Assembly: GCA_963730675.1 (NCBI GenBank)
Contig: CAVSSY010000012.1
Coordinates: 99,008-163,007, forward strand
Direction of reading: 5' to 3'
Source: an uncultured delta proteobacterium
GTDB lineage: Bacteria > Desulfobacterota > Desulfobacteria > Desulfobacterales > UBA5852
Length of the DNA stretch: 64,000 bases
Shown here: positions 15,519 to 54,081 of the stretch, piece by piece
Layout of the letters: the number at the start of each line of letters is the position of its first letter
Numbering within the stretch: position 1 is the first letter of the stretch
Position numbers and translations under genes: made by a program
The notes under the pieces: generated by a model
Seen by the model: the letters and a program-made list of their open reading frames with translations, nothing else
Told to the model about the DNA's origin: nothing
Database searches by the model: none

Positions 15519-15595
15519 TGACTTTTGGATCATTTGTCATGGGGTAAATGGCGGGTATAAATAGGAAGGAACAGTCGAATTTCGGAGAAGGGAGT

Positions 15596-25094: not shown

Positions 25095-25111
25095 TGCTTC
25101 GCCTCCGGTTC

Positions 25112-30550: not shown

Positions 30551-30748
30551 AACGTATCCCCTTTTGATTAGAGGTGCTAAATCCAATTTTCCTTGGTGCT
30601 GCCCTTTGTCAGAGCCGTCTCCAGCGGACCTTGGGTGACCTATTAGCCCTCATCGTTTCAACATTGCCAATTTTATCTGTTGACGACGTCCGTTGCCTGG
30701 CATCCTTAGTAGAATTCCCTGCAGCACAAGACCTGGGCTTTCTCCCGG

Positions 30749-32167: not shown

Positions 32168-32881
32168 TCAATACCCCGATGGCGGGTCACTGACCATGTA
32201 AACGACGGTACCGCTCTCGTAACCGCGGCTGTACCATGTGGTCCCGCATTGGTAGAAGATGGCACCGTTGACGGTCACCGTCGTTGCGGAACAGGGGAGC
32301 ACCGTCACGGTGTTCACATAGACGGTGTGTGAATGATAGTCGTCCTCCCTGTTCGCCCTGACAGCGGCTCCCACGGCGGCCCCGACAACAAACGCCGCCG
32401 CCTCGTCGTTATGGTGGTGCCAGTGGTTGTCCCAATCGCCCTCATCCTCGATAAAGTCCTGCCGGTCCTCCCGGTTTTGATTCTGGTGGTCCTGCCAGTC
32501 TTCGCGGGCATCATCGCGATTGCCCTCCCGATTCCCCTGTCGATCGCCGCCGGCTTCCTGTCGCTGCCCCTGGCGTTGAGATGCTGTTTCCCGCTGGCCG
32601 GCTGATGGCTGTGCTTGGCGCTGTGACACTTTTGCCTGACTGGTCGAGGGCTGCGCTTTGCGCTGCGAGACTCCCGCCTGACTGGCTGTTGGTCGTGACG
32701 CCGAGCGGGACGAGAAGCTGCCGCCACTGGCGGCGCTGCTGCGTGAGAAACCGCCTCCGCCGGAACGACCACCACCACCCCGCCCGCCACCTCGGCCGGC
32801 TTCGGCCATGCCGGAAAAGGTGGTCACAACCAGGAACATTGCTCCGATAAACAGTGCGAACGCTTTAAACTTGGGCGTCAT
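32168..32881 (-). CDS. secreted low-complexity (Gly/Arg/Ser/Gln-rich) protein with conserved C-terminal domain
   Basis: Start MTPKFKAFALFIGAMFLVVTTFSGMAEA, with AAAGGAGA upstream and an ATGA overlap with the DUF2092 gene. GRGGGRGGGGRSGGGG and QAxVSQRxAQPS repeats; C-terminus YQCGTTWYSRGYESGTVVYMVSDPPSGY. Confidence 0.6.
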   Translation of the reverse strand: MTPKFKAFALFIGAMFLVVTTFSGMAEAGRGGGRGGGGRSGGGGFSRSSAASGGSFSSRSASRPTASQAGVSQRKAQPSTSQAKVSQRQAQPSAGQRETASQRQGQRQEAGGDRQGNREGNRDDAREDWQDHQNQNREDRQDFIEDEGDWDNHWHHHNDEAAAFVVGAAVGAAVRANREDDYHSHTVYVNTVTVLPCSATTVTVNGAIFYQCGTTWYSRGYESGTVVYMVSDPPSGY

Positions 32882-33714
32882 TGTTGATCTCCTTTCGGCA
32901 TGGGCAGGGAACCCTTCTGGCGCACGGGGGCCAGGAACGGGATCTGCTCCGCACTTGCCGTCGGGTTGAATGCAAAACTGTTTGCGGCAACCTTGGGCGA
33001 TAGGTCCCAATCCAACAAATCGGCCCGAAACTGAGGGTCTCCCGGCGCATTCTTGTAGGTCAGGATGATCCGACGCGGCAACGGCTGCTCGCCCTGAGCG
33101 ATCCATATTTGCAAATCGACATCCGCGGAACGGACCGCCAGGTGGTCGGTGGGGACGTCGAAGAGGAAATTTTCTTCCACGTAATCGATGGATGTCACCT
33201 TCTTCTTCATATCCTTTGGAAAGCTGGTAAGGAACATCCGCGCCAGGGGCAGGGTAATCTGAAGATCCCTGACCAGATAGACAATGGCATCATCCACCGT
33301 GCCGGCTTTTTCCACGCGGGCGTATACATTGTCGTCGGCCTTGAAGACAGTGAGGCTCTCGCCGTCGAACAGGACCAGTCCCCGATCGCCGTCGCTGCGT
33401 TCGGCATCTACTCGCAAACGGTCAGGACGTTGAAGCAGCACCTGGTGCTTCCCGCCGAACTCGATCCGCTGGCCGTTGGGCTGGATCGCATCGTAGCCGC
33501 TGCGAATGGTCACGCTGAAAACCCGCGCCTTGGCGATGAAGTCAGCCATTTTATAAAAAATCGCCGTTGCTTCCGGATCCTGTTCCGCCGAGGTTGCCGC
33601 CGGCATCTTATCGGCAGCCAGCGCCGGGCCTGCGCCGAGTGCCAGAACAACCGCCAAGGCTGAAAATACGACCCACAGCGGACCAATAAGTCCGAAACGT
33701 ATGATCGGTTTCAT
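32878..33714 (-). CDS. DUF2092-like periplasmic protein (LolA-like fold)
   Basis: Signal peptide ...GAGPALA. Sequence pattern (FSVTIRSGYDAI...RLRVD...LFDGESLTVF) recalls DUF2092. Confidence 0.6.
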   Translation of the reverse strand: MKPIIRFGLIGPLWVVFSALAVVLALGAGPALAADKMPAATSAEQDPEATAIFYKMADFIAKARVFSVTIRSGYDAIQPNGQRIEFGGKHQVLLQRPDRLRVDAERSDGDRGLVLFDGESLTVFKADDNVYARVEKAGTVDDAIVYLVRDLQITLPLARMFLTSFPKDMKKKVTSIDYVEENFLFDVPTDHLAVRSADVDLQIWIAQGEQPLPRRIILTYKNAPGDPQFRADLLDWDLSPKVAANSFAFNPTASAEQIPFLAPVRQKGSLPMPKGDQQ

Positions 33715-33802: not shown

Positions 33803-33872
33803 TTCTTTAAAGTCCGGCCCGACCGCACAGCTCCATCGGCCGGATTACTTTTCCGCTGCCAGATATTCCAGG
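33803..33872. repeat. direct repeat, copy 2; overlaps the 3-prime end of the Fe-S protein gene
   Basis: See 32052-32121. Here the minus-strand frame encodes the genuine C-terminus ..EERRLEYLAAEK*. Confidence 0.7.
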
Positions 33873-34987
33873 CGCCGCTCTTCCCATTCCGCCATGCTGG
33901 TGGGCGTATGGAACCACTCTTCCGCAGACACCGGCTCAAGCTCGATGGCATCGGTTGGGCAGCCAGTCACGCAGACGCCGCATCCGATGCACTTTGCTCT
34001 TTCAACCAGTGATTTATTTTCATTCTTCGCATCTTCAGTGATGGCCTCGGCCGGGCATCGCTCGATGCACGCACCGCAGACTATGCATTCATCCGGATCG
34101 ATGACGGCACGGTAGTTCGATCTCTGCGCCCCCTCTGACACACCGGCGAGTTTCTGACCGTGAAGCACCCCGCAGCAGCAACCGCAGCAGTTACAAGTAC
34201 CGACAAACTGAGGCGTCTCCGCTTCCATGACGTAGCCATAGACCGCGAGGTGAATGTGCCCCATCTGCTCGAGTTCACCAAAAAGTTTTAACGCCGCCTC
34301 CCGGTCAAGTACGTTTTCCGAAAGTGGCGTCTGGGGTGGGACGCCTACAAAACCGCAACGCTTCATCGGCATATCGCAACTGTGGCCGTGCAATAACTCC
34401 CTCTCCCTTTTACATACGCAGGGCAACACCACAAATCGTTCGTGCCGTTTGAAATGCGCATCGATGTCGAGGTGGGACTCCATCACGGCCATCTGCTCCG
34501 GCTTGAGCGAGCCGCGCACCGGAACGACGCCCAGTACGCCGGGTCGCGGTGATAATATCCGCTCGCCACCGCCCTCGATCACGTATTGCTCGAAGAGCTC
34601 GGCAAATTCCTTGCCCAGCAGCCGCATATTGGCTTCGTACCAGCCCACCAGGAACGGGCCCAGCCGGTACTTCTTCGCGCCATCGACCTGAAGCGTCACG
34701 CCGGGAAGTGCATGTCCGGGTGCGTCCAAGCGAACCAGGCGCCGGGGTATCAGGCTTTCGCACAACACCGTTACGTCGGCCTCATCCATGCCGACCCGCT
34801 TCGCAATTTCGGCAGCGGTCTCGGGAAATCGGGTCAATTGGCCGGCAAGAGCAACCTCCTCCGGGCTGAACGCCATCTTAATCAGTTTTATTTCCACCCC
34901 GGATTTCGTCCTGGGAAAACCATGGGGAAGCGCCTCCTGCGCAGCCGCAAGGCGTTCGTAGATATCGACTGTTTCCGTATCGCTCAT
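33845..34987 (-). CDS. 4Fe-4S dicluster domain protein with Cys-rich CNCCGCCCG motif
   Basis: 380 aa. Contains VLPCVCK, GTCNCCGCCCGVLHG, and two ferredoxin motifs CIVCGACIERCP and CIGCGVCVTGCP. Confidence 0.8.
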   Translation of the reverse strand: MSDTETVDIYERLAAAQEALPHGFPRTKSGVEIKLIKMAFSPEEVALAGQLTRFPETAAEIAKRVGMDEADVTVLCESLIPRRLVRLDAPGHALPGVTLQVDGAKKYRLGPFLVGWYEANMRLLGKEFAELFEQYVIEGGGERILSPRPGVLGVVPVRGSLKPEQMAVMESHLDIDAHFKRHERFVVLPCVCKRERELLHGHSCDMPMKRCGFVGVPPQTPLSENVLDREAALKLFGELEQMGHIHLAVYGYVMEAETPQFVGTCNCCGCCCGVLHGQKLAGVSEGAQRSNYRAVIDPDECIVCGACIERCPAEAITEDAKNENKSLVERAKCIGCGVCVTGCPTDAIELEPVSAEEWFHTPTSMAEWEERRLEYLAAEK

Positions 34988-35029
34988 TGATCATCCCCTT
35001 CGCATATTGTTTTCCTGTGCGGAAAAATG

Positions 35030-36001
35030 TCATTTCTTATCATTGTCTATCCTCCCGCTGCGTCCAAACGATTCGTCGATGATGGTCTGTAACCGTTGAA
35101 CCAAATCATCGGACGGGGTTTTGTAATCGTCCAGTTCATACACCACGCCCAGCATCTCGTACTTGCCCAGGCCGAAGCGGTGATACGGCAGCAGCTCGTA
35201 GTCGATCACATTCTTGTGCGGGCGTATGAATTTCAACACCGCCCGGATGTGCGCCTCATCGGCGTTTACGCCGGGGATCAGCGGCGTGCGGGCGATGAAG
35301 TCGATGTCGGGAAACGTATCGTAGGCTTTTTTGAAGTTCGCCAGGATCCGCTTGTTCTCCGCCCCGGTCCACTTCTTGTGCCGCTCCGGGATCGTCAGCT
35401 TGTGGTCGTGCAGCATCGTATCCACGTGAGGCAGTACCTTTTCCAGATTGGCCCACGGCACATTGCAGGCGGTTTCGATGGCCGTATTGATGCCGCGCTT
35501 GTGCGCGCCTTCCAGCAATGCGGCGCTGAAGTCCGGCTGCAGTAAACACTCGCCGCCGCTCAGGGTAATCCCGCCCCCGGTATTGCGATAGAAGGAGCTG
35601 TCCTTCTCCACCTCGTCCAGCACTTCGTCCACCGTCATTCGTTTGCCGAACATCTCGAGCGCGCCTGTCGGACAGAGCGAGGCATGGGTCTCGTCGCAGT
35701 CCATGGCCAGCTGCCAGTTGACCTTCACGTGGTCATCGTCGCCCTCCACGAAGTAGAAAGCGCCTTCCGGAAAAGGTGGCTCCAGGCAGAGGCCGCACTT
35801 CCTGCCGGTGCACTTTTTGGGATCGTAGGCAATTTCGGGCTTTATCCGGATGCTTTCGGGATTGCCGCACCATTTGCAGCGCAGCGAGCACCCTTTCAGG
35901 AAAACCGTCGTTCGGATGCCAGGGCCGTCATGGCTGCAATAGCGTTGGATATTCAGCACGGTGCCTGTTATTTCGGCTGGTTTTTTGGGTTGCTTCTTCA
36001 T
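35030..36001 (-). CDS. glycyl-radical enzyme activating protein (radical SAM, with auxiliary ferredoxin-like insert)
   Basis: CSHDGPGIRTTVFLKGCSLRCKWCGNPES (CX3CX2C) followed by extra Cys clusters (CTGRKCGLC, CDETHASLCPTG). 323 aa. Confidence 0.9.
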   Translation of the reverse strand: MKKQPKKPAEITGTVLNIQRYCSHDGPGIRTTVFLKGCSLRCKWCGNPESIRIKPEIAYDPKKCTGRKCGLCLEPPFPEGAFYFVEGDDDHVKVNWQLAMDCDETHASLCPTGALEMFGKRMTVDEVLDEVEKDSSFYRNTGGGITLSGGECLLQPDFSAALLEGAHKRGINTAIETACNVPWANLEKVLPHVDTMLHDHKLTIPERHKKWTGAENKRILANFKKAYDTFPDIDFIARTPLIPGVNADEAHIRAVLKFIRPHKNVIDYELLPYHRFGLGKYEMLGVVYELDDYKTPSDDLVQRLQTIIDESFGRSGRIDNDKK

Positions 36002-36013
36002 TGTTCGGCCCCC

Positions 36014-37183
36014 TTATTTTCCACAGTAAATACCCAGTGAATCGGCAATCTTCAGGAATTCACTGTCGGCAGACACCGTTCTGATTTTGTTGATGGCTTC
36101 CGCCAGCGGTACGAACTTGATCTCCGGAGGAACAAACGCCACCATAGCGCCGCTTTTCCCGGCTTTCAGGGCCTGCAATGCCCCGGCGCCGTAGGCCATC
36201 CCCAGTTGCCGGTCGACGGCGGTTGGTTTCCCGCCCCTGACCCAGGGACCGATCACGAGGGGATAGGTTTCCTCGGCGATCAGCAGCTGCAGCTCCGTTG
36301 CCACGGCCTCGGCGGCCTGGCCTGACCGATGAATGACATGCTCGCTAGCTTCACCGGTTGCCAGCGGCGAAAGCGACGCTTTCAGTGAGGATGGACGCTC
36401 CTTTTTTTGCGCTTTTTTGATGAATTTGGCGCCTTCGGCCACCACCACCAGTCCATAGGGCCTTCGGGGTGAGATCTTGTCTTTCAATCTCCCGGCCAAG
36501 ATTTTAAGGTCGCAGGAAATTTCGGGCATCAGCACGGCATCGGCGCAAGCGGCAATACCGGCCTGCAATGCCACCCATCCGGCCTGCGCTCCCTGTACCT
36601 CCACGACCGCAATTCTGCGGGCCGACTGGGCGGCCTGACGGGCACGGTCGAGCATTTCGATGGTGAAACTCAGCGCGCTGTTAAACCCGAAGGAGACCGC
36701 GGTCGACGCGATATCGTTGTCGATGGACCTGGGAACGCAAACCGCATTGAGACCCTTCCGATGGAGCTTGTAAAGAATGCTCAGGCCCTGCACCCCAACG
36801 ACGGAAATCAATCCATCGATATTTTCCGTCTTCAACCGTTTCAACAATTCATCGGACATGTCCACTTCTTCAACCATGTCGTCCTCATTGACCTGACGCA
36901 CATGAAACGGATCTACCCTGGCCGACTGGCCAAGGACACCCCCGGCGGAGGGATCGAGGTTTTCAATCAGCTGCGGGCTGAGGGTAACCAGTCCGCCATC
37001 GGAGTAGCGCTCCGGGTGCAGCACCCCCTCAAACCCATCCCGGATGCCGACCATCTCCCACCCCATTCTACCGGCCGCCATGGCGGCGCCGGTAATTACG
37101 GCATTTATTCCCGGAACAAAGCCGGCACCCACAATGATGGCAATCCGTCTGTGGAAACTGCCATGTCCTATTTCTGTTGTCAT
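36014..37183 (-). CDS. PfkA-fold (6-phosphofructokinase family) protein with degenerate nucleotide-binding motifs
   Basis: Colinear with E. coli PfkA as I recall it. IAIIVGAGFVPGINA aligns to IGVLTSGGDAPGMNA, VVGVQGLS to IGGDGS, PRSIDNDI to PGTIDNDI, and VVEVQGAQAG to VVEVMGRYCG. Confidence 0.7.
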   Translation of the reverse strand: MTTEIGHGSFHRRIAIIVGAGFVPGINAVITGAAMAAGRMGWEMVGIRDGFEGVLHPERYSDGGLVTLSPQLIENLDPSAGGVLGQSARVDPFHVRQVNEDDMVEEVDMSDELLKRLKTENIDGLISVVGVQGLSILYKLHRKGLNAVCVPRSIDNDIASTAVSFGFNSALSFTIEMLDRARQAAQSARRIAVVEVQGAQAGWVALQAGIAACADAVLMPEISCDLKILAGRLKDKISPRRPYGLVVVAEGAKFIKKAQKKERPSSLKASLSPLATGEASEHVIHRSGQAAEAVATELQLLIAEETYPLVIGPWVRGGKPTAVDRQLGMAYGAGALQALKAGKSGAMVAFVPPEIKFVPLAEAINKIRTVSADSEFLKIADSLGIYCGK

Positions 37184-37295
37184 AATTGACCCCCATTACT
37201 GATTATTTTTGTTTTATCGCTGTGGCTCATATCAAGTAAACTCGGTACGGCATGATCAAAACGTCACGCCGTACCGATCCACTCTCAGTTCAACA

Positions 37296-39725
37296 TTATT
37301 CGCATCTCTGCAAGGTCCGTTCAATGACCTCGTTCTGCACGCCCACATGCAGCTGGGTGAAGAACGCGCTGAAACCGGCGACACGAACCACGAGATCGCG
37401 GTAGTTTTCCGGGTGTTTCTGTGCGTCCCTGAGCATCTCCGTATCCAGCACATTGAACTGAATGTGATAGCCACCGTTTTCGAACAAGGTCCTGACCAGA
37501 CTCAGCATGCTGTCCCGGCCCTTGCGCGTTTTCAACTGATCCGGCGGGAGCTTCATATTCATGTGCGTGGCGCACCACTTGACGGGATCATTACCTTTCG
37601 TTGCAGACATTATCAGCGCCGTAGCTCCGTTGACATCGGTTCCCCGCGTGGCGGACAGGCTGCCATCGGTAAGCGCCACTCCGGCCTTCTTGCCAGTGGG
37701 CAATGCGCCAGTCACCAGGCCCATCAGGTTGTGGACACTCTTGGTGTACTGGTCCAGCGATACCTTCATGTCCTTGGTAATGTAGCAACCGCCGCCATCC
37801 ACGTTGTTGAAAGCCGCCAAAACACTGTCATTCACCCTGCGAACCAAAAAGTCCACTTCATCAATGTCGTTGCCATATTTGGGCGCTTCCTCGTAGCACA
37901 TCTTGTGGACCTTCTCGTATTCACCTTCGAAATTGGCCGCCAGGGCTTTCTTGAGTTCCGCCATGGTCAGCTTCTTCTTGTCGAATACGAGATCCTTCAC
38001 GGCCATCAGTCCGTTCCCGGCATCCACACCACCTACCGAGATCTGGGCGACCGTGTAGTAGTTAGCGCCACCTTTCCAGGTTTCGGTGCCTGTTTCAATG
38101 CACCCCTTGGTCAGAATGGATCGCCAGGTACACGGCAGGAAATCTGCATTCAGCATGCTCGCAATCCAGGCCCCCCGGCGGAGGACATCTTCAGCGAATT
38201 GAAGCTGCCCTTCAAAAGCCGCATACAGTTCTTCGAAGTCCTTGAAGGTCTCCGGATCTCCTGTCTTGGGACCGACCTGCGTTTGGGTGCGCGGATCAAA
38301 GCCGTTGTTCAGGGTCAGTTCGAGCACTTTTCCCAGGTTGGGCTGTCCCTCAACCGGGTGGCCGGTTTCGTAGGGGATGTAGCTTCCCACGCAGGCACCG
38401 ACACAGGTGCGTCTGGCTTTTTCCAGCGGCAGAGCGCCCATCCTCTCGTTATGGCCCCAGAGATACAGGGCCCGCTTCATCATCACGTCGGCATTGACAA
38501 ACTGGGGCATGCCGACACCCGTAGCGATACAATCGAGGACTTTTTCAAGGAACCTGCCCGGCGTCTTCGAGGTGAGCGCACATGACAGCGGTGGCTGGGG
38601 GAAAGACAGGTAGGTACATGCATCGAGGATCACATAGTCCATCTCCGCAGTGGCGTCTTCGCCATCCTCGGTATAGCCCGCGAGGGTAATGCTCTGTCCC
38701 AGGTCGGCGGAGTTCTGCAGGGCGACCTTCTCGCCATAGTAGTAGTTGATCTCATTCAGCCTGACAATGAGGTTCTGGAACATAAAGACGGCGTCGTCAT
38801 AGTCGATCAGCCCGGCCGCCTTGTCAGCCTGCAAGTAGGGATCGAAGTTCTGCCCCAGGTAGGCCTCGGAGTAGCCGCAGCCGACCTGTTCAAGCTCTGC
38901 CGCCAGGTGACAGAAGAAATGGCACTGCATGGCCTCCCGCAGGTTGCGCGCAGGATGCTCGGGCACGTGTTCGCAAGTCTCGGCAATGGCAATCAGCTCC
39001 GCCTTGCGGCCTTTGTCCTTCTCTTTTGCTGCCATCTCGCGAGCCAACTCGGCATAACGGTTGGCCCAGCGGATCACCGCTCGCATCACAATGAGACTGG
39101 CCTGGTAAAAGTAGAGTTTGTCTGTGTTCTCCAAACGCATTTCCAGGGACATCATCCGCTCTTTGACGTCCTTGATCGCACTGGCGAGGCCCTGCTGGTA
39201 AACCATCGGGTAGTTGAGGTTGCCGCCGCCACCCGGCCAGTCATGGAACGGGACAACGAGACCGGATTGGTAGGACGGGGTCGGATCGAAACCATAGCGC
39301 TGTTGGAATATCGCTTCCGTCCGGCTCTTCAGCCCACGCTTGTCCCAGTAATCGAGCGCCCATGCATTGGCTTCTTTGTCTGCCTTGGTTTTCGAATTCT
39401 CAACGGTTTTCTCTTCCTTCATCCACAGGACGTTCCACTCGGGATTGGGATAGATCGCCTTGTAGCTGCCTGCCATGGCACCCACGAAGAGGTTGTCATC
39501 GATGAACAGCTTCTTACGTTCCAGCAGAGCCGCCAGGAACTTGGCCCGCCGGAGGATCTGTACGTCACCCACCGTCTCTTCATATACCTCTTTCATGATC
39601 CTGATCCGCTCGAAATCGAGCTCCTGAGGTGTACTTCTCTGCCGTTCTTTCAGGCGATCGATCCGTGCGGTATCGGCCTTGACTTGTGCAGTTGAAATCT
39701 TCTTTGTTTCTTTCTTCTCTGCCAT
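37296..39725 (-). CDS. glycyl radical enzyme (PFL2/glycerol-dehydratase-like superfamily), specificity unknown
   Basis: 809 aa. Glycyl motif VVRVAGFSAFF (G784; codons 37371-37385). Cys loop RTCVGACVGSY (C445; 38382-38405). ILTKGCIETGTETWKGGANYY block. Activase 2 genes downstream. Confidence 0.9.
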   Translation of the reverse strand: MAEKKETKKISTAQVKADTARIDRLKERQRSTPQELDFERIRIMKEVYEETVGDVQILRRAKFLAALLERKKLFIDDNLFVGAMAGSYKAIYPNPEWNVLWMKEEKTVENSKTKADKEANAWALDYWDKRGLKSRTEAIFQQRYGFDPTPSYQSGLVVPFHDWPGGGGNLNYPMVYQQGLASAIKDVKERMMSLEMRLENTDKLYFYQASLIVMRAVIRWANRYAELAREMAAKEKDKGRKAELIAIAETCEHVPEHPARNLREAMQCHFFCHLAAELEQVGCGYSEAYLGQNFDPYLQADKAAGLIDYDDAVFMFQNLIVRLNEINYYYGEKVALQNSADLGQSITLAGYTEDGEDATAEMDYVILDACTYLSFPQPPLSCALTSKTPGRFLEKVLDCIATGVGMPQFVNADVMMKRALYLWGHNERMGALPLEKARRTCVGACVGSYIPYETGHPVEGQPNLGKVLELTLNNGFDPRTQTQVGPKTGDPETFKDFEELYAAFEGQLQFAEDVLRRGAWIASMLNADFLPCTWRSILTKGCIETGTETWKGGANYYTVAQISVGGVDAGNGLMAVKDLVFDKKKLTMAELKKALAANFEGEYEKVHKMCYEEAPKYGNDIDEVDFLVRRVNDSVLAAFNNVDGGGCYITKDMKVSLDQYTKSVHNLMGLVTGALPTGKKAGVALTDGSLSATRGTDVNGATALIMSATKGNDPVKWCATHMNMKLPPDQLKTRKGRDSMLSLVRTLFENGGYHIQFNVLDTEMLRDAQKHPENYRDLVVRVAGFSAFFTQLHVGVQNEVIERTLQRCE

Positions 39726-39813
39726 TTTTTTTCTCCTTTTGTTTTTTGTTTAAAGAATTAAAAGTCAGCCGGTTATGGCACGGTTTTTAAAGCCCAGACC
39801 CGGGTTAATATTT

Positions 39814-39827
39814 TCCGTGCGCACGGA
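39814..39827. promoter_or_regulatory. perfect 14-bp palindrome TCCGTGCGCACGGA, 89 nt upstream of the GRE start codon
   Basis: The sequence equals its own reverse complement and sits in AT-rich flanks within the 159-nt intergenic region. Confidence 0.4.
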
Positions 39828-39884
39828 TTAATCCTTATTTTTAAATTTTCTTCTCAGGGCGGTCACTGCGACGGGAACTTCCCA

Positions 39885-41732
39885 TTAGACACCATACAAT
39901 ACTGAAAGCATCCCGACCTGGATAATCAAATACAAAAGGGTCATTCCACTCCCCGCCTTGATAAAGTCGATGGTTTTATACCCGCCGGGACGCATAAAAA
40001 GTGCATTGACCTGATGGGTAGGCAGGATAAACGTATTGGAAGCGGCTATCCCTACAGTCAACGCCATTATTTTCGGATCGGCGCCGATCTGCATCGCCAT
40101 ATTCATGGCGAGGGGCACCATGAGCACTGTTGCACCAACATTGGAAGCGACAAGAGCAAACATGGAAGTAAGCAAAGCAACGACGACCATTAAAATTAGC
40201 GGGGTTAGGTCTCCCAAACTCCCCAGGAGGTTCAGAGCGATATAGCTGGCCGCCCCTGTTTTTTCAAAAGCTGCGCCAAGGGGAATCAGGCCGGCCAGCA
40301 GAAAGATGGTCATCCAATCCACTGACTTGTAGGCCTCATCGATGTGGAGAACCCCGGAGAGGATCATTCCCAGCGCGCCGGTGAGAAGCGCAATAGATAG
40401 TTTAACCTTGAAGCCCAGAGCAAGAACAAGGGCTACCGCTAAAAAGAAAAGAGCAAACCCCACTTTTTCAGGAATGGTTGACTCGCCACGCAACTCCTCT
40501 GTAAACAGTATATTCACATTTTTCTTGAGAATATGAAATTTCTCCCAAGGTGCTGCGAGTAAAAGTGCATCGCCAATTTTCAGCTCGGTCCTGTTGATAT
40601 CTTCCAGCAGGATTTCATCTCCTCGATAGATTGCCAAAGGGTTCACCTGGTACTTCTCTCGGAAATCAAGCGCATCCATTGTATGGCCGGTTAACTCAGA
40701 ATGTGGAGGGACAATCGCTTCTACCACTCCGGCATTTGCCGGAGAAAACTCCTCTGCAAAGACTTTCATTCCTTCTCGAATTGTCCAGTCAAGGTCTTTC
40801 GCTAATTGATTAGCCTGAGCATGGGTGGAAACAATTGCCATAACATCACCTGGGCCGATTTCTGATTCTCTTGTCGGAGCGAGATTTTTGCTTCCGCTCC
40901 CTGTTTTAGAAATCCCTACAACTGTGGAAAAGTATTTTTGTCGTATTTCAAGCTGCCCAAGAGTAACGATTAGAAATCCTTTAGGAACTGTCAGTTCAAA
41001 GCTGCGATCTACCTTATCTTTATAAATTGATTTGAGATGGGCGCTGGCAACCCCCACTTCTTCAGAGCGTTCGGCCTTTGGTAGAATAAAACGGCCAAGC
41101 AGAACAAAATAGATGAGTGCGCCGGCAAGCAGGGCGACCCCAACCGGCGTTACCGTAAACAAGTTGAATGGTTCGAATTGTTGACCACCAAGACTCCCGG
41201 CGTTATTCTGCCACCAGGATCCCATCAGGTCATTCAGCATAATGAGAGGGCTGGAACCGATAAGGGTGAGGCAACCGCCTATTATCGCACAGAAACCCAT
41301 CGGCATCAGGATCTGTGAAACCGGGACTTTCAGTTGCTGGCTGATCCGCTTTGTGGGTGGAAGAAAAAGAGCAGCAGCTCCAATATTTTGCATGAAGCTT
41401 GAGATAAAAGAGACCGTGGCGGAAATGACCACCATAATGCGGGATTCGGTGGTTCCGGCAACCTTGACAATCTGTCTGGCCAGAATATTCATTATGCCGG
41501 TACGATTGAGACCGGCTCCGATAATCATGACGGCAATGATTGAAACCACAGCATTGGAACTGAGTCCCATGATCGCTTCCGCTCCGGTAAGCACGCCGGT
41601 CAGCGGTAAGAGAACCATCATGAGCATCCCCACAAGATCCACTCGCAGCCATTCAAATATAAAAAGAAGAATCGCCATACCGAGTAGGGCGAAAACAATG
41701 ATAATTTCACTGGTTAGGACAGGTTCAACCAT
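39885..41732 (-). CDS. SLC13/DASS-family anion permease with two central TrkA-C (RCK-C) domains
   Basis: Polytopic halves flank two TrkA-C-like segments (..LEIRQKYFSTVVGISK..GDVMAIVS.. and ..LDFREKYQVNPLAIYRGDE..GDALLLAAP..). Start set at MVEPVLTSE. Confidence 0.8.
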   Translation of the reverse strand: MVEPVLTSEIIIVFALLGMAILLFIFEWLRVDLVGMLMMVLLPLTGVLTGAEAIMGLSSNAVVSIIAVMIIGAGLNRTGIMNILARQIVKVAGTTESRIMVVISATVSFISSFMQNIGAAALFLPPTKRISQQLKVPVSQILMPMGFCAIIGGCLTLIGSSPLIMLNDLMGSWWQNNAGSLGGQQFEPFNLFTVTPVGVALLAGALIYFVLLGRFILPKAERSEEVGVASAHLKSIYKDKVDRSFELTVPKGFLIVTLGQLEIRQKYFSTVVGISKTGSGSKNLAPTRESEIGPGDVMAIVSTHAQANQLAKDLDWTIREGMKVFAEEFSPANAGVVEAIVPPHSELTGHTMDALDFREKYQVNPLAIYRGDEILLEDINRTELKIGDALLLAAPWEKFHILKKNVNILFTEELRGESTIPEKVGFALFFLAVALVLALGFKVKLSIALLTGALGMILSGVLHIDEAYKSVDWMTIFLLAGLIPLGAAFEKTGAASYIALNLLGSLGDLTPLILMVVVALLTSMFALVASNVGATVLMVPLAMNMAMQIGADPKIMALTVGIAASNTFILPTHQVNALFMRPGGYKTIDFIKAGSGMTLLYLIIQVGMLSVLYGV

Positions 41733-41914
41733 GGTTCGACCCCTTAGTGGTCTTGTCAGCACTTGAAGCGAAGACCTTCGCCATAAAGAACCAGACGATC
41801 ACCGGCACGGGAACCGCCGCAAAATCGTCACCAGCAATTTCGGGTCGAGGTTCGGAAAGGCGGTGATCGCCACGGCGTAGAACATGGCCACGATACCGAA
41901 GGCGTCCTGAATGT

Positions 41915-42811
41915 TCATGCCGTATCGCCCGTATCGATCTTGCCAGCCTGTTTGGCAAATATTCTGGCGCCAATGGCTGCGAGGACAATTGACCACAAAG
42001 TCCACATGATGGTCATCGTCACGATAAGCGGATCCGCGTTCGGAATGGCAAGCGCCGCCGCCAATACCGCGGCGACGTTCCGTGTGCCCATCCCCAACGC
42101 CATGACGCTGCGCTGATTCTGTTTCAGACCAAAACCGAAGCGATAGGTGATCAGACCCATCCCGACCATGAACAGGGTCATTGAAAGGAGGGCAAATTCG
42201 CCCGCCGTGTTGAGCATCCCCCGACCGTAGATCACAAGACACAAAACGATCAACGTCAATGTGGTCAACATGGCGATCAACTTGACTACCGGGAAAATCC
42301 TGTTTGCCGCACTGTCGGCATAATGCCGAATGGCGGCTCCGATTATCAGTGGCAGGAGGATTGTCAGGAGGAGCGGCTTTGCGAGAGCCCAAGTGCTGAT
42401 CGTGAGGCCCTGGATCAACAAGGGCGCCATCAATGGCATCAACACCACCGTGCCGATCGCCACCAGCGGTATGAAAGCTCCTGCGAAGCCAATGTCTCCG
42501 CGGGATTTTCCCACCATCTGTTGGAGGAATGGCGCGCATGGCGCCAGGCTGGCGAGGAGCACCACGATGACGTAAGGTTCGGCCAGGGGAAGGACCCGGG
42601 TGATCAGGTAGCCGATCGCTGGCCCCACCACCCAGCCCCACACGAAGATCAGGGCCAGGGCTTTCTTGTTCCGCAACGCCGTGACCACCTCGGGCATCCT
42701 CACCTGGAGACCCATGGCCGCCAGGTTAAACACGGTAAAGATTAATACCAATGGAGAGAATATTATCTGAAGAAATTGCATGATAGTGCTCATAGCTCGT
42801 TTCCCTGCCAC
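41915..42811 (-). CDS. bile acid:Na+ symporter (BASS/SBF) family transporter
   Basis: 298 aa, about 9-10 TM helices. The pattern (LASLAPCAPF, MALGMGTRNVAAVLAAAL) recalls the SBF-like family. Confidence 0.65.
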   Translation of the reverse strand: MAGKRAMSTIMQFLQIIFSPLVLIFTVFNLAAMGLQVRMPEVVTALRNKKALALIFVWGWVVGPAIGYLITRVLPLAEPYVIVVLLASLAPCAPFLQQMVGKSRGDIGFAGAFIPLVAIGTVVLMPLMAPLLIQGLTISTWALAKPLLLTILLPLIIGAAIRHYADSAANRIFPVVKLIAMLTTLTLIVLCLVIYGRGMLNTAGEFALLSMTLFMVGMGLITYRFGFGLKQNQRSVMALGMGTRNVAAVLAAALAIPNADPLIVTMTIMWTLWSIVLAAIGARIFAKQAGKIDTGDTA

Positions 42812-42854
42812 TTCAGCCCGTATTGCTTTTGTGGTTGTTCACATCGGAAGCTTT

Positions 42855-44561
42855 TTAATAGATTAATTCACCCAGAGAATACATGGCCCGCGACAGCATG
42901 CCGCCGGAGATATTTTTTACTTTGAATCCGTTCTGCAAAAGGATGCGCGTGGCGTAGTAGGCGCGCTGGGCCGAACGGCAGTTGATATGGATCTCGCGGT
43001 CCCGGGGCAGCTCGTCCAGGCGGGCGCGGAGTTCCGGCAGCGGGATATTGACCGCGCCCGGAACGCTCTCCACGACCAGTTCCGCCGGCTGGCGCACGTC
43101 CAGGATGAAGGCGCCGGCCAGCGTGTCCCAGTGACTGACCGGCATGTCGCCCCGCAGAACGTTGGCGGCGATCATCCCGGCGAAGTTGACCGCATCCTTG
43201 GCGCTGCCGAACTGGGGCGCGTAGCAAAGTTCCGCTTCTTCCAGGTCGTAGATGGTGGCCCCCATCTGGATGGCCACGGCCAGGGCGCTGATCCGTTTGT
43301 CCACCGCCGGACCGTCCTGGCCCAGCGCCTGCGCGCCGAGGACTTTTCCGTTGGATTTCCGGAAAAGGACCTTCAAGCCGAGCATCTTGGCGCCCGGATA
43401 GTATCCGGCATGTGAATTCGGGAAGAGATAGATCTTCTCGTAGTCCTGGTCGCCGAGCTGCTTGAGGGTTTTCTCGCTGACCCCGGTCCAGGCGGCAGCG
43501 CCGCCAAACAGACCGATGATGGCGGTGCCCTGGCTGCCCCGGTAGCGGGAATCCCGCCCGCAAATCACGTCGGCGGCAATCCGGCCCTGGCGGTTGGCCG
43601 GCCCGGCCAGCGCAATCAGGCTCCACTGACTGGTTCCGAAGTCCTTGACTTCAACGGCATCGCCCACGGCCAAGATGTCCGGATCGCTGGTGCACATGTG
43701 CGCGTCCACGCGAATACCGCCGCGGTCGCCGATCGTGAGCCCGGCCGTCTTGGCCAGGGCCGTGTCCGGCCGCACACCGATGGCCAGAATCACGATGTCC
43801 GCCGGATACGTTTTCCCGGAACTCGTCTGGACCTCGATCGCGCCGCCGTCCAACGGCTTGAATCCGACCACGCCGTCGTTGGCCGCAACCCGCACGCCAT
43901 GACGGATGATATGGCCCTGGACGAGGACCGCGATCTCCGGGTCCAGCGGGGTCAGGACATGATCGGGCTTCTGGATGAGGGTCACCTCAAACCCGAGGTG
44001 GATCAGGTTCTCCGCCGTCTCGAGGCCGATGAACCCGCCGCCCACCACGACTGCGCGCCGCACGGGTTTCACCATCTGAATACCGGAGTAGTTGGACATT
44101 CCCGCCAGAAACGTGGTGCCGCCTCCGATCCACTCCCGTATCGTGCGCGCGTCCGGAACGGTACGCACATGAAAGATCCCCGGCAGATCGATGCCGGGCA
44201 GCTGTGGATGGACCGACGCCGCGCCGGGCGACAGCACCAGCTTGTCGTAGGATTCGGTCGTGATCTCGCCGGTCGTTACATCACGAAGGTCCACGGTCTT
44301 TTTTTTCGCAGAAATGGAAACCGCCTCGCAGTTGGTCCGCACATCGATCCCGAACATCACGCGAAACATCTGTTCCGACGCCACCAGAAGGCTCGCTTCT
44401 TTTTCAATCACGCCCCCGACATGGTAGGGCAGCCCGCAATTGGCATACGAAACGTACGGTCCGCGCTCCACTATGAGAATTTCCGCTTTTTCATCCAACC
44501 GGCGCAATCGCGCCGCGCACGAAGCGCCGCCGGCCACGCCGCCAACGATGATGACTTTCAT
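42855..44561 (-). CDS. CoA-disulfide reductase-family flavoprotein fused to a C-terminal rhodanese domain (persulfide/polysulfide reductase-like)
   Basis: MKVIIVGGVAGGASCAARL (FAD motif), redox Cys in VSYANCGLPYHVGG, and rhodanese loop INCRSAQRA near the C-terminus. 568 aa. Confidence 0.85.
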   Translation of the reverse strand: MKVIIVGGVAGGASCAARLRRLDEKAEILIVERGPYVSYANCGLPYHVGGVIEKEASLLVASEQMFRVMFGIDVRTNCEAVSISAKKKTVDLRDVTTGEITTESYDKLVLSPGAASVHPQLPGIDLPGIFHVRTVPDARTIREWIGGGTTFLAGMSNYSGIQMVKPVRRAVVVGGGFIGLETAENLIHLGFEVTLIQKPDHVLTPLDPEIAVLVQGHIIRHGVRVAANDGVVGFKPLDGGAIEVQTSSGKTYPADIVILAIGVRPDTALAKTAGLTIGDRGGIRVDAHMCTSDPDILAVGDAVEVKDFGTSQWSLIALAGPANRQGRIAADVICGRDSRYRGSQGTAIIGLFGGAAAWTGVSEKTLKQLGDQDYEKIYLFPNSHAGYYPGAKMLGLKVLFRKSNGKVLGAQALGQDGPAVDKRISALAVAIQMGATIYDLEEAELCYAPQFGSAKDAVNFAGMIAANVLRGDMPVSHWDTLAGAFILDVRQPAELVVESVPGAVNIPLPELRARLDELPRDREIHINCRSAQRAYYATRILLQNGFKVKNISGGMLSRAMYSLGELIY

Positions 44562-44643
44562 TTGGTTTGTCCCCTATCTTTGCCCAGCGGTTGTTTTCCC
44601 TGCTCCGGGCTGGTTCCGGTGCATCTTCATTTGATCAAGTTCA

Positions 44644-45321
44644 TTATTTCTTAATGCCACGCGCCTGATCCAAATAGAGCTTGACCCGTTCGGCCCAAAA
44701 TTTGAAAGCGTCCTCCGCCGATCCCCACTTCGAGAACCGATCGGTGAAGCCGGCCGTTTTATCATCCTGGGCCACCGCGAGCACCTCGTTGGTCAGGGAG
44801 TCGAGGGCCATCATATCCCCGCTGGTGGCTCCCGAACCTGTCCAAGAATCCGTGGCGCCTTTCTTGATGATGCTGATGGCCAGTCCAACAGGGACCACCG
44901 TGGTGATGCCGCTTAAGACCGGGCTGCTCTGCTTGAGATCGGTGATGGCAAAACGAATCCGGAGGACGTCGGGCCCGGGCTCGGCCACAATGGGATAGGA
45001 CCCCTTGAGGGTCTCGACGAACTGCTTGTCGAAACCGTCGGCCAGTTCTTTCAATGCGTTGGGCTCGATGCCCTTGTATTGGGAATCGTCAGCAAAGAAG
45101 AAGACCACGCTGTCCAGCATGACCTTGTCGTACTTGGCCCAATCCACGCCCGGCTTGAGCCAGCGCATTTTGGCCCCATCTTTGGGCCCCGGTTCCAGCT
45201 TGGCGGCATACGCTCCGAGAAAACCTTGCGGGGCCGTTCCCATATCGGTTATAGCGCCATTGCCGGTGGCGCATCCCACGACCAACAACAAGCCGACGAT
45301 CAACAACATACTTTTTTTCAT
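44644..45321 (-). CDS. DUF3313-like lipoprotein
   Basis: Lipobox LLVVGC, 225 aa. Family call from general resemblance only. Confidence 0.5.
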   Translation of the reverse strand: MKKSMLLIVGLLLVVGCATGNGAITDMGTAPQGFLGAYAAKLEPGPKDGAKMRWLKPGVDWAKYDKVMLDSVVFFFADDSQYKGIEPNALKELADGFDKQFVETLKGSYPIVAEPGPDVLRIRFAITDLKQSSPVLSGITTVVPVGLAISIIKKGATDSWTGSGATSGDMMALDSLTNEVLAVAQDDKTAGFTDRFSKWGSAEDAFKFWAERVKLYLDQARGIKK

Positions 45322-45322
45322 T

Positions 45323-45784
45323 TTACTTGCGCTCCTTTGTTATGGGTTGTTCCTGTTTCACCGCTTGCCCAGCAGGTTTGCGGCGCTCCTCGGTGCCGCG
45401 ACGGATCAAGGCGACCATGGTGCAGTCGCTGAAGGGTTTGCGCAGAAAACCGATCGCCCCTGCTTTCAACGCCCGTTCTTCCACGCCTTCCGTCTCGTGT
45501 CCGGTAATGAAGATAATAGGGATGTCGGACCCGGCCTGGTTCATGCGTGCCTGCACTTCCAGACCGGTCATTCCGGGCATCTGGATATCGAGCACCACAC
45601 AATCCGCGGCAGGCAAGTCAAGCGCTGCGGATAAAAACGCCTCCCCGGAGGAGAAGGTGCGCACCTGCATCCCCCAGGAGCGCAGCAAACGCTTTAATGC
45701 CAGAACCACGGAGGGGTCGTCATCGACGACATGGATGAGCGGCGAACCGCCCGCAAGAGAACCTTCTTTTGGCTTTGCTTTCAT
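45323..45784 (-). CDS. single-domain response regulator (CheY-like receiver)
   Basis: VVDDDPSV...VLDIQMPGMTGLEV...IIFITGH...KAGAIGFLRKPF. Confidence 0.85.
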   Translation of the reverse strand: MKAKPKEGSLAGGSPLIHVVDDDPSVVLALKRLLRSWGMQVRTFSSGEAFLSAALDLPAADCVVLDIQMPGMTGLEVQARMNQAGSDIPIIFITGHETEGVEERALKAGAIGFLRKPFSDCTMVALIRRGTEERRKPAGQAVKQEQPITKERK

Positions 45785-46153: not shown

Positions 46154-46777
46154 TTAAAGCGGCCGAATGCCGATCTTCTCGGCGGCCCGCACCAGATCGG
46201 GGACGGAATCGGCCTTCATTTTTTTCATCACCCGTCCGCGGTGGATTTTGATGGTCTTCTCGCTGGCCCCCAGATCGAAGGCGATCTGCTTGTTGAGCAT
46301 CCCGCGAACCACCAGGGCCATCACTTGGCGCTCCCGCGGCGTCAATGTCGCATAGCGTTTTGCTACAGCGGCGTTGGCCGCGTGTTCGGCCCGCGCATGG
46401 CGATCGCGCTGAAGGGCCTCCTGAACCGCTTCGAGCAGGTCTTCCGCTTTGAACGGCTTGGGGAAGAAATCCACCGCGCCCGCTTTCATGGCTTTTACAC
46501 TGGAGGGAATGTCGCCGTGGCCGGTGATGAAAATGATGGGAATACCCTGGGCGGCGGTCTGCAGCCGGTCTTGAAGCTGGAGTCCGTCCAGTCCGGGCAT
46601 CTGCAAGTCCAGCAACACGCAGCCCGGGCGCGGATCTTGCTCCCAGCACACGAGAAATTCGTCGGCGGAGGCGAAGCTTTCGGCCTGGTAGCCGGCGGAT
46701 TTCAGAAGGCGCAGCAGGCTTTTGCGAACCCCGGGGTCGTCATCCACCACAAACACGATTGAGGCGTTTTCAGTCAA
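46154..46777 (-). CDS. FixJ/NarL-type response regulator (receiver + LuxR HTH)
   Basis: VVDDDPGVRKSL, DLQMPGLDGL, and LTPRERQVMALVVRGMLNKQIAFDLGASEKTIKIHRGRVMKKM. Confidence 0.9.
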   Translation of the reverse strand: MTENASIVFVVDDDPGVRKSLLRLLKSAGYQAESFASADEFLVCWEQDPRPGCVLLDLQMPGLDGLQLQDRLQTAAQGIPIIFITGHGDIPSSVKAMKAGAVDFFPKPFKAEDLLEAVQEALQRDRHARAEHAANAAVAKRYATLTPRERQVMALVVRGMLNKQIAFDLGASEKTIKIHRGRVMKKMKADSVPDLVRAAEKIGIRPL

Positions 46778-50772: not shown

Positions 50773-50853
50773 AGTGCGTTCCCCTATAAAACGTGCGGAT
50801 CCTGAATGGTATCGGCGTCTCGTGGCGTCTTTCCCGTGTGGTTGTGTCGGGGG

Positions 50854-53937: not shown

Positions 53938-54081
53938 AATGGCTTCCTTCGGTTCCGCAGGGTGATGAAGATCGGGCCGAGACCGCCGGAATGCGTCGCG
54001 CCGGAATCGCCATCACCTTTGAATGCGGGCGGTTGGAGGGCACCCAAGGGTGTCGACGGGCGGATGAATCCCATCAGCCCT

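Follow-up and report, generated by a model that had tools for sequence, protein, structure and literature searches.

In a stretch of 64,000 nucleotides from an uncultured delta proteobacterium of the Desulfobacterales (contig CAVSSY010000012.1, positions 99,008 to 163,007; here called the window), a gene island has been identified in which a glycyl radical enzyme (GRE), its radical SAM activating enzyme (activase) and a phosphofructokinase-like (PFK-like) protein are encoded together with genes of sulfur metabolism. In many phyla, this radical module is linked to a flavoprotein of the CoA-persulfide reductase type, the CoADR-rhodanese, to small rhodaneses, to a homologue of the desulfinase DszB and to the anion transporters BASS and SulP. 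As far as can be read from its sequence, the GRE system is new in the design of its active site, in its partner protein and in its putative pathway. The conserved island comes in two versions, which differ in carrying one or the other of two unrelated radical-enzyme modules. Tentatively, and with slightly less than even confidence, the locus can be seen as a horizontally mobile island for anaerobic sulfur metabolism, in which the radical step would be performed by a new GRE clade and the pathway would run via a sulfinate. By means of it, many bacteria of sediments and soils can probably metabolise some organic sulfur compound under anoxic conditions.

The centre of the island consists of seven co-directional minus-strand genes with short gaps, as had been reported in a preliminary description of this DNA; coordinates are confirmed, labels match Pfam and NCBIfam, and the intergenic gaps from the CoADR-rhodanese to the Fe-S protein amount to 43, 152, 159, 112, 12 and 42 nt. 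The array is not limited to these seven genes and comprises approximately 18 co-directional genes at about 22528-48978. The members on which the argument is built are the following:

42855..44561, minus strand, CoADR-rhodanese fusion of the CoA-persulfide/polysulfide reductase type, 568 aa (Pfam, PDB)
41915..42811, minus strand, BASS/SBF-family anion transporter, 298 aa (Pfam SBF 7.9e-20)
39885..41762, minus strand, CitMHS/DASS permease with TrkA_C domain, 625 aa (Pfam)
37296..39725, minus strand, GRE, 809 aa (Pfam PF02901 1.8e-138, PF01228 3.2e-26)
37242..37277, minus strand, stem-loop directly after the GRE stop codon (14-bp stem; intergenic fold z=-3.9)
36014..37183, minus strand, PFK-like (PfkA-fold) protein, 389 aa (Pfam PFK PF00365 1.2e-61)
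35030..36001, minus strand, GRE-activating radical SAM enzyme (activase), 323 aa (TIGR02494)
33845..34987, minus strand, Fe-S protein, 380 aa (sequence motifs and Pfam)
30749..31915, minus strand, DszB-like (desulfinase-fold) cytoplasmic protein (PDB 2de2)

Membership of the 809-aa protein in the GRE superfamily is indicated by the presence of both the PFL-like barrel domain and the C-terminal glycyl radical domain (Pfam). The fingerprint of the latter domain, RVxG[FWY]x6-8[FL]x4Qx2[IV]x2R (GRE review, June 2026), is matched by residues 781-806 (RVAGF-SAFFTQ-L-HVGV-Q-NE-V-IE-R). Gly784 in RVAGF is the predicted glycyl radical position and is invariant in 45 full-length orthologues of 60-97% identity, to which all residue conservation refers; the predicted thiyl radical residue Cys445, which aligns with Cys434 of HypD and Cys433 of glycerol dehydratase, is equally invariant (45/45). 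By sequence, the protein is a true GRE located outside all characterised classes, in agreement with what had been proposed initially. In fact, it scores more than two-fold below every equivalog cut-off of NCBIfam (HypD 462 vs 1100, IAD 420 vs 1100, HpsG 398.5 vs 1000, CutC 369 vs 1050, HPAD 360 vs 1150, HpfG 350.7 vs 1000, and the PFL model TIGR01255 87.7 vs 994). The best solved structure is HypD (PDB 6vxc, E=1e-112), with the structures of BSS and MASS ranking below the eliminases, and glycerol dehydratase and HypD, the nearest characterised enzymes, share about 31% of their residues with it.

The predicted active site differs from the known ones first of all in the Cys loop, T-C441-V-G-A-C445-V-G447, where C445-V-G447 stands in place of the Cys-x-Glu (CXE) motif in 45/45 orthologues, an invariant glycine thus occupying the position of the glutamate. 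All eliminases and isomerases retain CXE, with the glutamate binding and deprotonating the substrate hydroxyl, and a second cysteine on the Cys loop is confined to PFL and TdcE (GRE review, June 2026). The adjacent Cys-Cys of these formate lyases is not present in the window enzyme, the loop of which has the spacing C441-x3-C445. Aligned with glycerol dehydratase, residues His164, His281/Ser282, Tyr339 and Asp447 correspond to Gly167, Cys283/Gly284, Gly343 and Val458. Invariant throughout the orthologues are C283, C445, G447, G166-168, G343, H456, V458 and H665, and C441, Y660 and K662 are kept in 44/45; Y660, K662 and H665 are carried by the late strand. C-S lyases possess in addition an Arg/Gln/Arg sulfonate anchor (IslA R189, Q193, R678; GRE review, June 2026). 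The beta-1 loop of the window enzyme, WPGGGGNLNYP, homologous to the region of glycerol dehydratase H164 and HypD H160, contains no Arg or Gln when judged via the alignment with glycerol dehydratase and HypD. Taken from these alignments, the GRE belongs to a distinct clade with a pocket predicted to be roomier, cysteine-rich and devoid of the glutamate.

The partner of this enzyme is equally unusual. That the motifs of the PFK-like protein are degenerate, as first described, is confirmed against the PFKs of Bacillus and E. coli: GGDxPGxN reads GAGFVPGIN, GGDGS reads VGVQGL and MGR reads QGA with loss of R171, and R243 is replaced by Y and H249 by P. Every one of the 60+ orthologues shows the same losses, as does a second paralogue. 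Retained are R72, D127 (Glu in most orthologues), D129, R162, E222 and R252, and the protein is below the cut-off of all NCBIfam PFK models. GGDxPGxN and GGDGS we take to be the Mg-ATP motifs, and R171, R243 and H249 the fructose-6-phosphate residues, of PfkA. With the Mg-ATP motifs lost in all orthologues, a canonical Mg-ATP-dependent kinase is excluded, and the strong conservation of the protein shows that it is functional. The activase scores 316 bits against a cut-off of 174 with TIGR02494, carries the CX3CX2C motif and has HpsH as its closest equivalog (347 vs 430).

The arrangement of the three genes gives hints to the role of the PFK-like protein. The gap between the PFK-like and the activase gene has a median of approximately 2 nt, with 4-nt overlaps in called genes, and the spacer between the GRE and the PFK-like gene measures 45-279 nt (median 97). 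Directly after the GRE stop codon a hairpin is found in 53/60 loci (median z=-4.5; 37277-37242 in the window), the stem of which, GGTACGGCGTG...CACGCCGTACC, is near-identical in the delta-proteobacterial window, in the Planctomycetes loci L014, L028 and L053 and in the gammaproteobacterial locus L007; such cross-phylum sequence conservation of a GC-rich stem-loop is unusual for non-coding DNA. A general scan of the window for promoters and terminators gave the same counts as shuffled sequence. The pattern of hairpin and tight gap suggests that the GRE is expressed at a high level and that the PFK-like protein and the activase are made at a low level and in a coupled manner. Because of this organisation we infer that the PFK-like protein would act with the activase and would be neither a kinase of catabolism nor a stoichiometric subunit of the GRE. 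The second PFK-like paralogue (about 61-68% identical, also with degenerate motifs) is located directly upstream of the Fe-S gene in approximately ten loci (L008 at 14673-17032, L029, L031, L032, L035, L052, L056, L059, L062 and L071), an arrangement that suggests a functional pair of PFK-like and Fe-S protein.

Analysis of the distribution, performed with one genome per species and with synteny determined by tblastn and de novo clustering, recovered 73 GRE genome loci with orthologues in at least nine phyla. These loci belong to Planctomycetota, Bacteroidota, Ignavibacteria, Gamma-, Alpha-, Beta- and Deltaproteobacteria, Acidobacteriota, Verrucomicrobiota/Kiritimatiellia, Chloroflexota and Nitrospirota, and an identity of 60-97% across phyla points to horizontal transfer. 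A cultured carrier is Lutimonas halocynthiae CECT 8444 (Bacteroidota). A search of plasmids by tblastn with the GRE gave distant GREs only. Fifty-six independent loci, spread over many phyla, share the order GRE, PFK-like, activase, which is preserved with about 95% of the orthologues, and the arrangement is not due to chance. Thirty-five loci are flanked by at least 8 kb on each side; among these, and counting genes on the GRE strand, the activase is present in 97%, the PFK-like gene in 94%, the CoADR-rhodanese in 69%, the DszB-like gene in 60%, BASS in 54%, a small rhodanese in 46%, SulP in 34%, the Fe-S protein in 31%, glutamate dehydrogenase in 26% and the DASS permease in 3%. The few loci that seem to be without the PFK-like gene are frameshifted long-read assemblies. 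In long-read metagenome-assembled genomes (L016, L037, L045, L055, L057, L062, L065 and others), the GRE, PFK-like or activase gene is split, most likely as a consequence of assembly indels rather than as pseudogenes, and these splits lower the apparent synteny counts.

With these numbers, the earlier assignments can be refined. The PFK-like gene accompanies the GRE as had been surmised, in at least nine phyla, and the Fe-S gene does not form part of the core. From the two anion permeases thought to point to the substrate, BASS is retained and the DASS permease is lineage-specific, with occurrence in two loci only. The DszB-like gene, previously placed outside the finding, is a core component located directly after the activase or the Fe-S gene. 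A link to organosulfur chemistry, then called speculation, has obtained strong comparative support by the frequencies of the CoADR-rhodanese, the DszB-like gene and the small rhodaneses and by the association of the sulfur genes with a second radical enzyme. Compact operons (L074, L157, L158) summarise the association; in L074 the order is sigma-54 activator, ABM, CoADR-rhodanese, BASS, SulP, GRE, Fe-S protein, PFK-like protein, activase, DszB-like protein, ferredoxin-nitroreductase and rhodanese.

Within the sulfur genes, the CoADR-rhodanese displays the CoADR-RHD architecture of a pyridine-nucleotide disulfide oxidoreductase domain with a single redox Cys and a C-terminal rhodanese domain (Pfam), from which NAD(P)H-dependent reduction of persulfide or polysulfide with bound CoA is the predicted activity. 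It matches Bacillus anthracis CoADR-RHD (3icr, E=1e-149), Shewanella Npsr (3nta) and a CoA-persulfide reductase (8a56), with E values from 1e-133 to 1e-149, and both the redox-active Cys42 (SYANCGLPY) and the rhodanese Cys528 (NCRSAQR) align with 3icr. Small rhodaneses with a CRSGGRS loop recur, some with and some without a signal peptide.

For the DszB-like protein, the only match in the PDB is DszB (2de2), over the full length and with E=5.6e-9. C23, H63, R73 and G75-76 align on C27, H60, R70 and G73 of DszB, and the Cys23/His63/Arg73 triad together with G75-76 is invariant in 24 orthologues. In the DszB structure, Cys27, His60 and Arg70 constitute the catalytic site of the desulfinase. The protein had at first been read as SsuA/NMT1-like, which was rejected with the absence of a signal peptide and with DszB as the sole structural match. 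Thus, a periplasmic-binding-protein-like fold without an export signal is combined with the triad, and sulfinate hydrolysis is the predicted activity. Distant homologues in rhizobia, Burkholderia and Streptomyces adjoin flavin monooxygenase-type genes.

Homologues of the DszB-like protein with 63-66% identity are encoded on Rhizobium plasmids, and on one of these the same island is found with a different radical enzyme. On plasmid NZ_CP030763.1 of the cultured R. leguminosarum ATCC 14479 (L076), the DszB-like gene is situated between two genes annotated as '2-hydroxyacyl-CoA dehydratase family' and two annotated as 'acyl-CoA dehydratase activase'. The two large subunits match BzdO/BcrB, BzdN/BcrC, HadB/C and the double-cubane reductase model, and the activases match BzdQ/BcrA/BcrD, that is, an enzyme of the benzoyl-CoA reductase/2-hydroxyacyl-CoA dehydratase (BCR/HAD) type. 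The counterparts of the window genes include the CoADR-rhodanese (78.5% identity), the GH63 glucosidase (79%), glucose 1-dehydrogenase (74%), a GH13-like protein (46%) and a LuxR/NarL-type regulator (54%), with a counterpart of the single-domain regulator also present; the island furthermore harbours the trio of kinase and regulators, BASS, two rhodaneses, SulP, a bestrophin-like protein, DUF2092 and a BoxA-like ferredoxin-FNR reductase.

Scanning of metagenomes with the beta subunit identified 79 loci with 76-90% identity. In the 24 longer ones, BASS, both rhodaneses, SulP, GH63 and the GH13-like gene recur, and none possesses a GRE, PFK-like or activase gene of the GRE system; conversely, BCR/HAD genes are present in none of 75 GRE loci. 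Throughout the BCR/HAD-type islands, the CoADR-rhodanese is 75-82% and the DszB-like protein 60-81% identical to the window proteins, and in L076, L131 and L136 the DszB-like gene separates the gene of the beta subunit from those of the activases. No CoA ligase or transferase gene was observed near the BCR/HAD enzyme genes. This orphan four-subunit BCR/HAD/double-cubane-like enzyme (L076 9484-14912; L078-L156) is abundant in soil and wetland metagenomes, in some loci with two alpha-beta pairs. A divergent pair of DszB-like and CoADR-rhodanese genes also exists without a radical enzyme, on plasmid pRL22b1 of R. leguminosarum bv. trifolii 22B (L077 12957-17395; 63% and 72% identity), where they adjoin an amino-acid ABC transporter and a homocysteine S-methyltransferase gene.

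A sugar module of GH63/MGH1-like glucosidase, GH13-like protein and glucose 1-dehydrogenase is common to both island types (L076 21618-25164, L159 12814-15446), with the glucosidase gene detected in 13 GRE loci from several phyla. The module could supply reductant or hint at a glucoside as the substrate.

From these components a pathway can be envisaged. An anionic organosulfur compound of the sulfonate, sulfone or thiosulfonate class would be imported, and the radical enzyme would carry out the hard C-S or S-O step towards a sulfinate, or would work next to a sulfinate, which the DszB-like enzyme would hydrolyse to sulfite. Sulfane-level sulfur would be channelled via the rhodaneses and reduced by the CoADR-rhodanese with NAD(P)H to sulfide, and anion carriers may export the sulfur oxyanions. 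The PFK-like protein might help the activase to install or maintain the radical and would have no kinase role; a support kit of the radical enzyme may be formed by the Fe-S protein together with small ferredoxins, FNR/BoxA-like reductases, MetK and the Pfs-like nucleosidase; and glucosidase, GH13-like protein and glucose dehydrogenase would deliver NAD(P)H. Candidate reactions for the radical step are the beta-scission of a carbon radical with release of a sulfonyl or sulfite radical, a reduction of sulfonate to sulfinate that would resemble ribonucleotide reductase and use the extra cysteines, and cleavage of a sulfone.

The reaction of DszB is the hydrolysis of a sulfinate to sulfite, and the biological routes by which sulfinates are known to arise (thiol dioxygenases, DszA/SfnG) depend on oxygen; with the DszB-like gene inside both kinds of radical operons, a sulfinate is therefore proposed as the intermediate. 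Rhodaneses convert thiosulfonates to sulfinates and persulfide, and such a desulfuration would represent an oxygen-free route to a sulfinate that would also explain the enzymes for sulfane sulfur. Furthermore, the BCR/HAD-type alternative together with the supply of NAD(P)H and ferredoxin by the island favours a reductive or very low-potential step. Extending this interpretation, the GRE clade without the glutamate, with its PFK-fold activation partner, and the ATP-driven BCR/HAD/double-cubane-type enzyme might be interchangeable front ends of the first oxygen-independent desulfinase pathway, in which inert sulfonates, sulfones or thiosulfonates would be converted via a sulfinate to sulfite and sulfide as an anaerobic counterpart of Dsz, Sfn and Ssu in at least nine phyla of sediment, peat, lake and soil bacteria, with the PFK-like protein as the first GRE accessory factor that is not an Fe-S protein; in this full form the proposal is possible yet doubtful.

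A number of observations weigh against the sulfinate pathway. The similarity to DszB is remote (E=5.6e-9), and the substrate of DszB is an aromatic sulfinate, aliphatic sulfinates being mechanistically harder. No obvious counterpart of the Arg/Gln/Arg anchor of IslA/HpsG is visible in the GRE when aligned to HypD and glycerol dehydratase. The CoADR-rhodanese and the DszB-like gene are missing within 10 kb in 31-40% of the loci, and the DszB-like gene is missing within this distance in the cultured Lutimonas. Genes for carbon processing such as aldehyde dehydrogenase or CoA ligase are not conserved in the loci, which leaves the fate of the carbon product unexplained. As GREs abstract hydrogen atoms and BCR/HAD enzymes inject electrons, it is not obvious how both would perform the same reaction. 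The sugar module and the envelope proteins could mean a general anoxia or stress island, and the organosulfur substrate itself is deduced from gene context.

The last-mentioned possibility can be formulated as a distinct explanation, in which the sulfur genes would serve as an electron sink or for detoxification of polysulfide, thiosulfate or persulfide, comparable to Npsr/NSR, the GRE would have a sulfur-free substrate and the island would be an anoxia-survival package. This would fit with persulfide/polysulfide reductases as the relatives of the CoADR-rhodanese, with a glucosidase, a GH13-like protein and a glucose dehydrogenase that are retained along with the island, with the presence of PAS/GAF sensor kinases, of envelope proteins and of more than one anion channel, and with a DszB-like/CoADR-rhodanese pair that occurs on its own as in strain 22B. 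Nevertheless, we regard it as unlikely, given that the DszB-like gene is embedded in the radical-enzyme operons of both island types and that the joining of two unrelated radical enzymes to the same sulfur genes would be hard to explain if the radical step were unrelated to sulfur. Rather improbable, though congruent with several features of the island, is a GRE that acts as a reductase like class III ribonucleotide reductase, with the substrate radical driving the loss of oxygen from a sulfonate to give the sulfinate, the two electrons coming from C283/C441, which a thiol system would afterwards re-reduce, and the BCR/HAD enzyme achieving the same reduction by low-potential electron injection. 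Extra invariant cysteines in or beside the active site, an alternative module from a family specialised in very low-potential reductions (benzoyl-CoA, double-cubane reductase models), an NAD(P)H source and NADPH-to-ferredoxin reductases of the island's own and a subsequent homologue of a sulfinate-specific hydrolase would fit to such a mechanism, as would the use of thioredoxin-type reductants by some class III ribonucleotide reductases. However, no thioredoxin or glutaredoxin is conserved across the loci, the CoADR-rhodanese occurs also in BCR/HAD-type islands and is thus not a GRE-specific reductant, and a reduction of sulfonate to sulfinate is without known biological precedent.

Two further explanations concern individual proteins. 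A real kinase activity of the PFK-like protein on a substrate such as 6-deoxy-6-sulfofructose, with the GRE using a phosphorylated compound as PflD/YbiW, has a precedent in SqiK (PMC9594981) and would be in line with the residues R72, D/E127, D129, R162, E222 and R252 retained, with the glycosidases of the island and with the existence of GREs that act on sugar phosphates. The loss of GGD, GGDGS, R171, R243 and H249 in every orthologue and in the paralogue makes it very unlikely; neither is an isomerase, aldolase or mutarotase present, the BCR/HAD-type islands lack the PFK-like gene, which would place a kinase step outside the shared pathway, and the partner with which the gene is coupled is the activase gene instead of one for catabolism. 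That the GRE is an ordinary member of the HypD, CutC, IslA/HpsG, glycerol/propanediol dehydratase or PFL families with incidental neighbours would explain why HypD, CutC and glycerol dehydratase are the top matches among hidden Markov models and PDB entries, and is hardly credible in the light of equivalog scores that are all below half of the cut-off, of an identity of about 31%, of CVG at the place of the required CXE in every orthologue and of neighbours conserved across phyla. A reading in terms of arsenic (ACR3), selenium or glucosinolates had been dropped, as no match to the ACR3 model and no supporting genes were present and the glycosidase families were wrong.

The Fe-S protein carries the CNCCGCCCG string and two CX2CX2CX3CP ferredoxin motifs, both noted at the outset and present in the sequence. 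Its layout comprises an N-terminal helical (winged-helix-like) domain, a Cys-rich middle part (C190/192/204/211 and C265-C272) and a C-terminal 2x[4Fe-4S] ferredoxin domain; in the AlphaFold2 model (pLDDT 54), the N-terminal helical domain alone is confident. The CCG strings may resemble those of the HdrB type, and no match to the Pfam CCG model was obtained. The gene often follows the second PFK-like paralogue, and the protein is accessory and not core. It is absent from BCR/HAD-type islands, where apparent matches turned out to be ferredoxin-FNR (BoxA-like) fusions that share the ferredoxin domain only. No family of HiPIP-like small open reading frames is conserved across the GRE loci. The DASS permease, restricted to the window and L049, is a lineage-specific accessory, and the partners usually seen are SulP and a further BASS, BASS often being present as two paralogues. 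Other recurrent genes encode small ferredoxins, FNR-like reductases, MetK, a PNP_UDP_1 (Pfs-like) nucleosidase and a 2-oxoacid:ferredoxin oxidoreductase; together these look like a radical SAM/GRE support kit in mostly aerobic hosts.

Further members of the array extend upstream of the CoADR-rhodanese gene to 48978 and downstream of the Fe-S gene to 22528, the latter part including also the DszB-like gene:

46792..48978, minus strand, sensor histidine kinase (GAF, PAS, HisKA, HATPase; Pfam)
46154..46777, minus strand, LuxR/NarL-type response regulator (Pfam)
45323..45784, minus strand, single-domain response regulator (Pfam)
44644..45321, minus strand, DUF3313 lipoprotein, not conserved with the island (Pfam; lipoprotein-like N-terminus)
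32878..33714, minus strand, DUF2092 (LolA-like) exported protein (Pfam 7e-67)
28196..30586, minus strand, EutB-EutC fusion of the B12-dependent ethanolamine ammonia-lyase family, 796 aa (lineage-specific neighbour)
25112..27829, minus strand, GH63/MGH1-like glucosidase of the sugar module (Pfam)
23574..25214, minus strand, alpha-amylase-family (GH13-like) protein of the sugar module (family assignment)
22528..23703, minus strand, glucose 1-dehydrogenase of the MDR type, archaeal-type, real start probably Met43 (Pfam)

The LuxR/NarL-type regulator family recurs in 17 GRE loci. The EutB-EutC gene, a third kind of radical enzyme at the GRE locus, immediately precedes the GRE gene in L001 (6712-9084) and L037 (2008-4380), the two nearest relatives. 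Just upstream of the sensor kinase, an RND efflux system with outer-membrane factor, 1027-aa AcrB-like pump and HlyD-type adaptor is encoded (49126-55194, minus strand). An open reading frame at 32168-33106 (minus strand) has an overlap with the DUF2092 gene at the end of the latter; its product, if begun at an internal Met, would be a Gly/Ser/Gln/Arg-rich low-complexity protein behind a signal peptide, and it has no family match and is not conserved in the other loci. The long open reading frames 37209-38585 (plus strand), 41799-42641 (minus strand) and 43698-44654 (plus strand), which lie opposite to the GRE, BASS and CoADR-rhodanese genes or run through them in another frame, were rejected as Arg/His-rich artefacts of GC-rich sequence without family support.

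Much of the organic sulfur in sediments and soils is present as sulfonates, and to our knowledge oxygen-independent cleavage is established for no more than a few activated sulfonates with two or three carbons (C2 and C3). The widespread, horizontally transferred island, in which a new GRE clade or, as the alternative, a BCR/HAD enzyme is joined with a persulfide reductase and a homologue of desulfinases, points to an anaerobic chemistry of sulfur that has so far gone unrecognised. If true, a class of GREs working without the CXE glutamate would be added, a new kind of GRE partner, a PFK-fold pseudo-kinase co-translated with the activase, would be introduced, and the orphan double-cubane/BCR branch would gain a physiological substrate context. 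With two cultured carriers, Lutimonas halocynthiae CECT 8444 and R. leguminosarum ATCC 14479, the question is directly testable. The literature is in accordance with the novelty of the system: a full-text search found no description of an island with a GRE, a PFK-like protein and sulfur genes, and, in line with the preliminary description, which knew of no characterised GRE system with a PFK-like protein between enzyme and activase, a recent survey names no PFK-like, rhodanese or persulfide-reductase partner and lists accessory subunits only for HPAD, BSS and MASS (GRE review, June 2026).

Among the known systems, the eliminases IslA/IseG and HpsG share with the window system a PFL-like GRE with a radical SAM activase, an anaerobic organosulfur context and anion uptake. 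On the other hand, the CXE glutamate is replaced (CVG) and the Arg/Gln/Arg anchor is not evident in the window enzyme, the context of aldehyde processing or bacterial microcompartments is not found, and the PFK-like, DszB-like and CoADR-rhodanese proteins are extra. HypD provides the top structure and the top equivalog model with a full-length alignment, in which its Glu436, Asp278 and His160 correspond to Gly447, Cys283 and Gly167. As in the window, extra non-activase proteins, some of them with Fe-S clusters, occur in the multisubunit GREs HPAD (gamma), BSS (beta/gamma) and MASS (beta/gamma/delta). Those accessory subunits are small HiPIP- or rubredoxin-like proteins, whereas the window system has a constant PfkA-fold partner of 389 aa, the physical association of which is putative, and an optional 380-aa multi-cluster protein with a helical N-terminal domain unlike the known small subunits. 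Class III ribonucleotide reductase may offer an analogy as a GRE with extra redox-active cysteines that performs a net reduction; it belongs, however, to the RNR-like and not to the PFL-like branch, and a thioredoxin partner is absent from the window system.

PfkA-family kinases, including SqiK, the sulfofructose kinase of the sulfo-EMP2 pathway (PMC9594981), have the PF00365 fold and some residues of the fructose-6-phosphate site in common with the PFK-like protein, from which they differ by the Mg-ATP motifs, gone in every orthologue, and by the coupling of the gene to that of the activase. Benzoyl-CoA reductases, 2-hydroxyacyl-CoA dehydratases and double-cubane reductases occupy the position of the GRE module in islands elsewhere, with an unrelated fold and mechanism, the ATP-driven injection of electrons. 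CoADR-RHD, Npsr and CoA-persulfide reductase resemble the window flavoprotein in the two-domain architecture and in both catalytic cysteines; the flavoprotein remains below the NCBIfam CoADR equivalog cut-off (407 vs 579) and is embedded in a radical-enzyme island and not in a cst-type sulfide-stress operon. Finally, the desulfinase DszB of the Dsz '4S' pathway, considered here together with the aerobic Sfn/Ssu clusters, has the same fold and the same Cys/His/Arg triad as the DszB-like protein of the window at remote similarity, with the flavin monooxygenases DszA and DszC as partners in the Dsz pathway and oxygen-sensitive radical enzymes as partners in the island.

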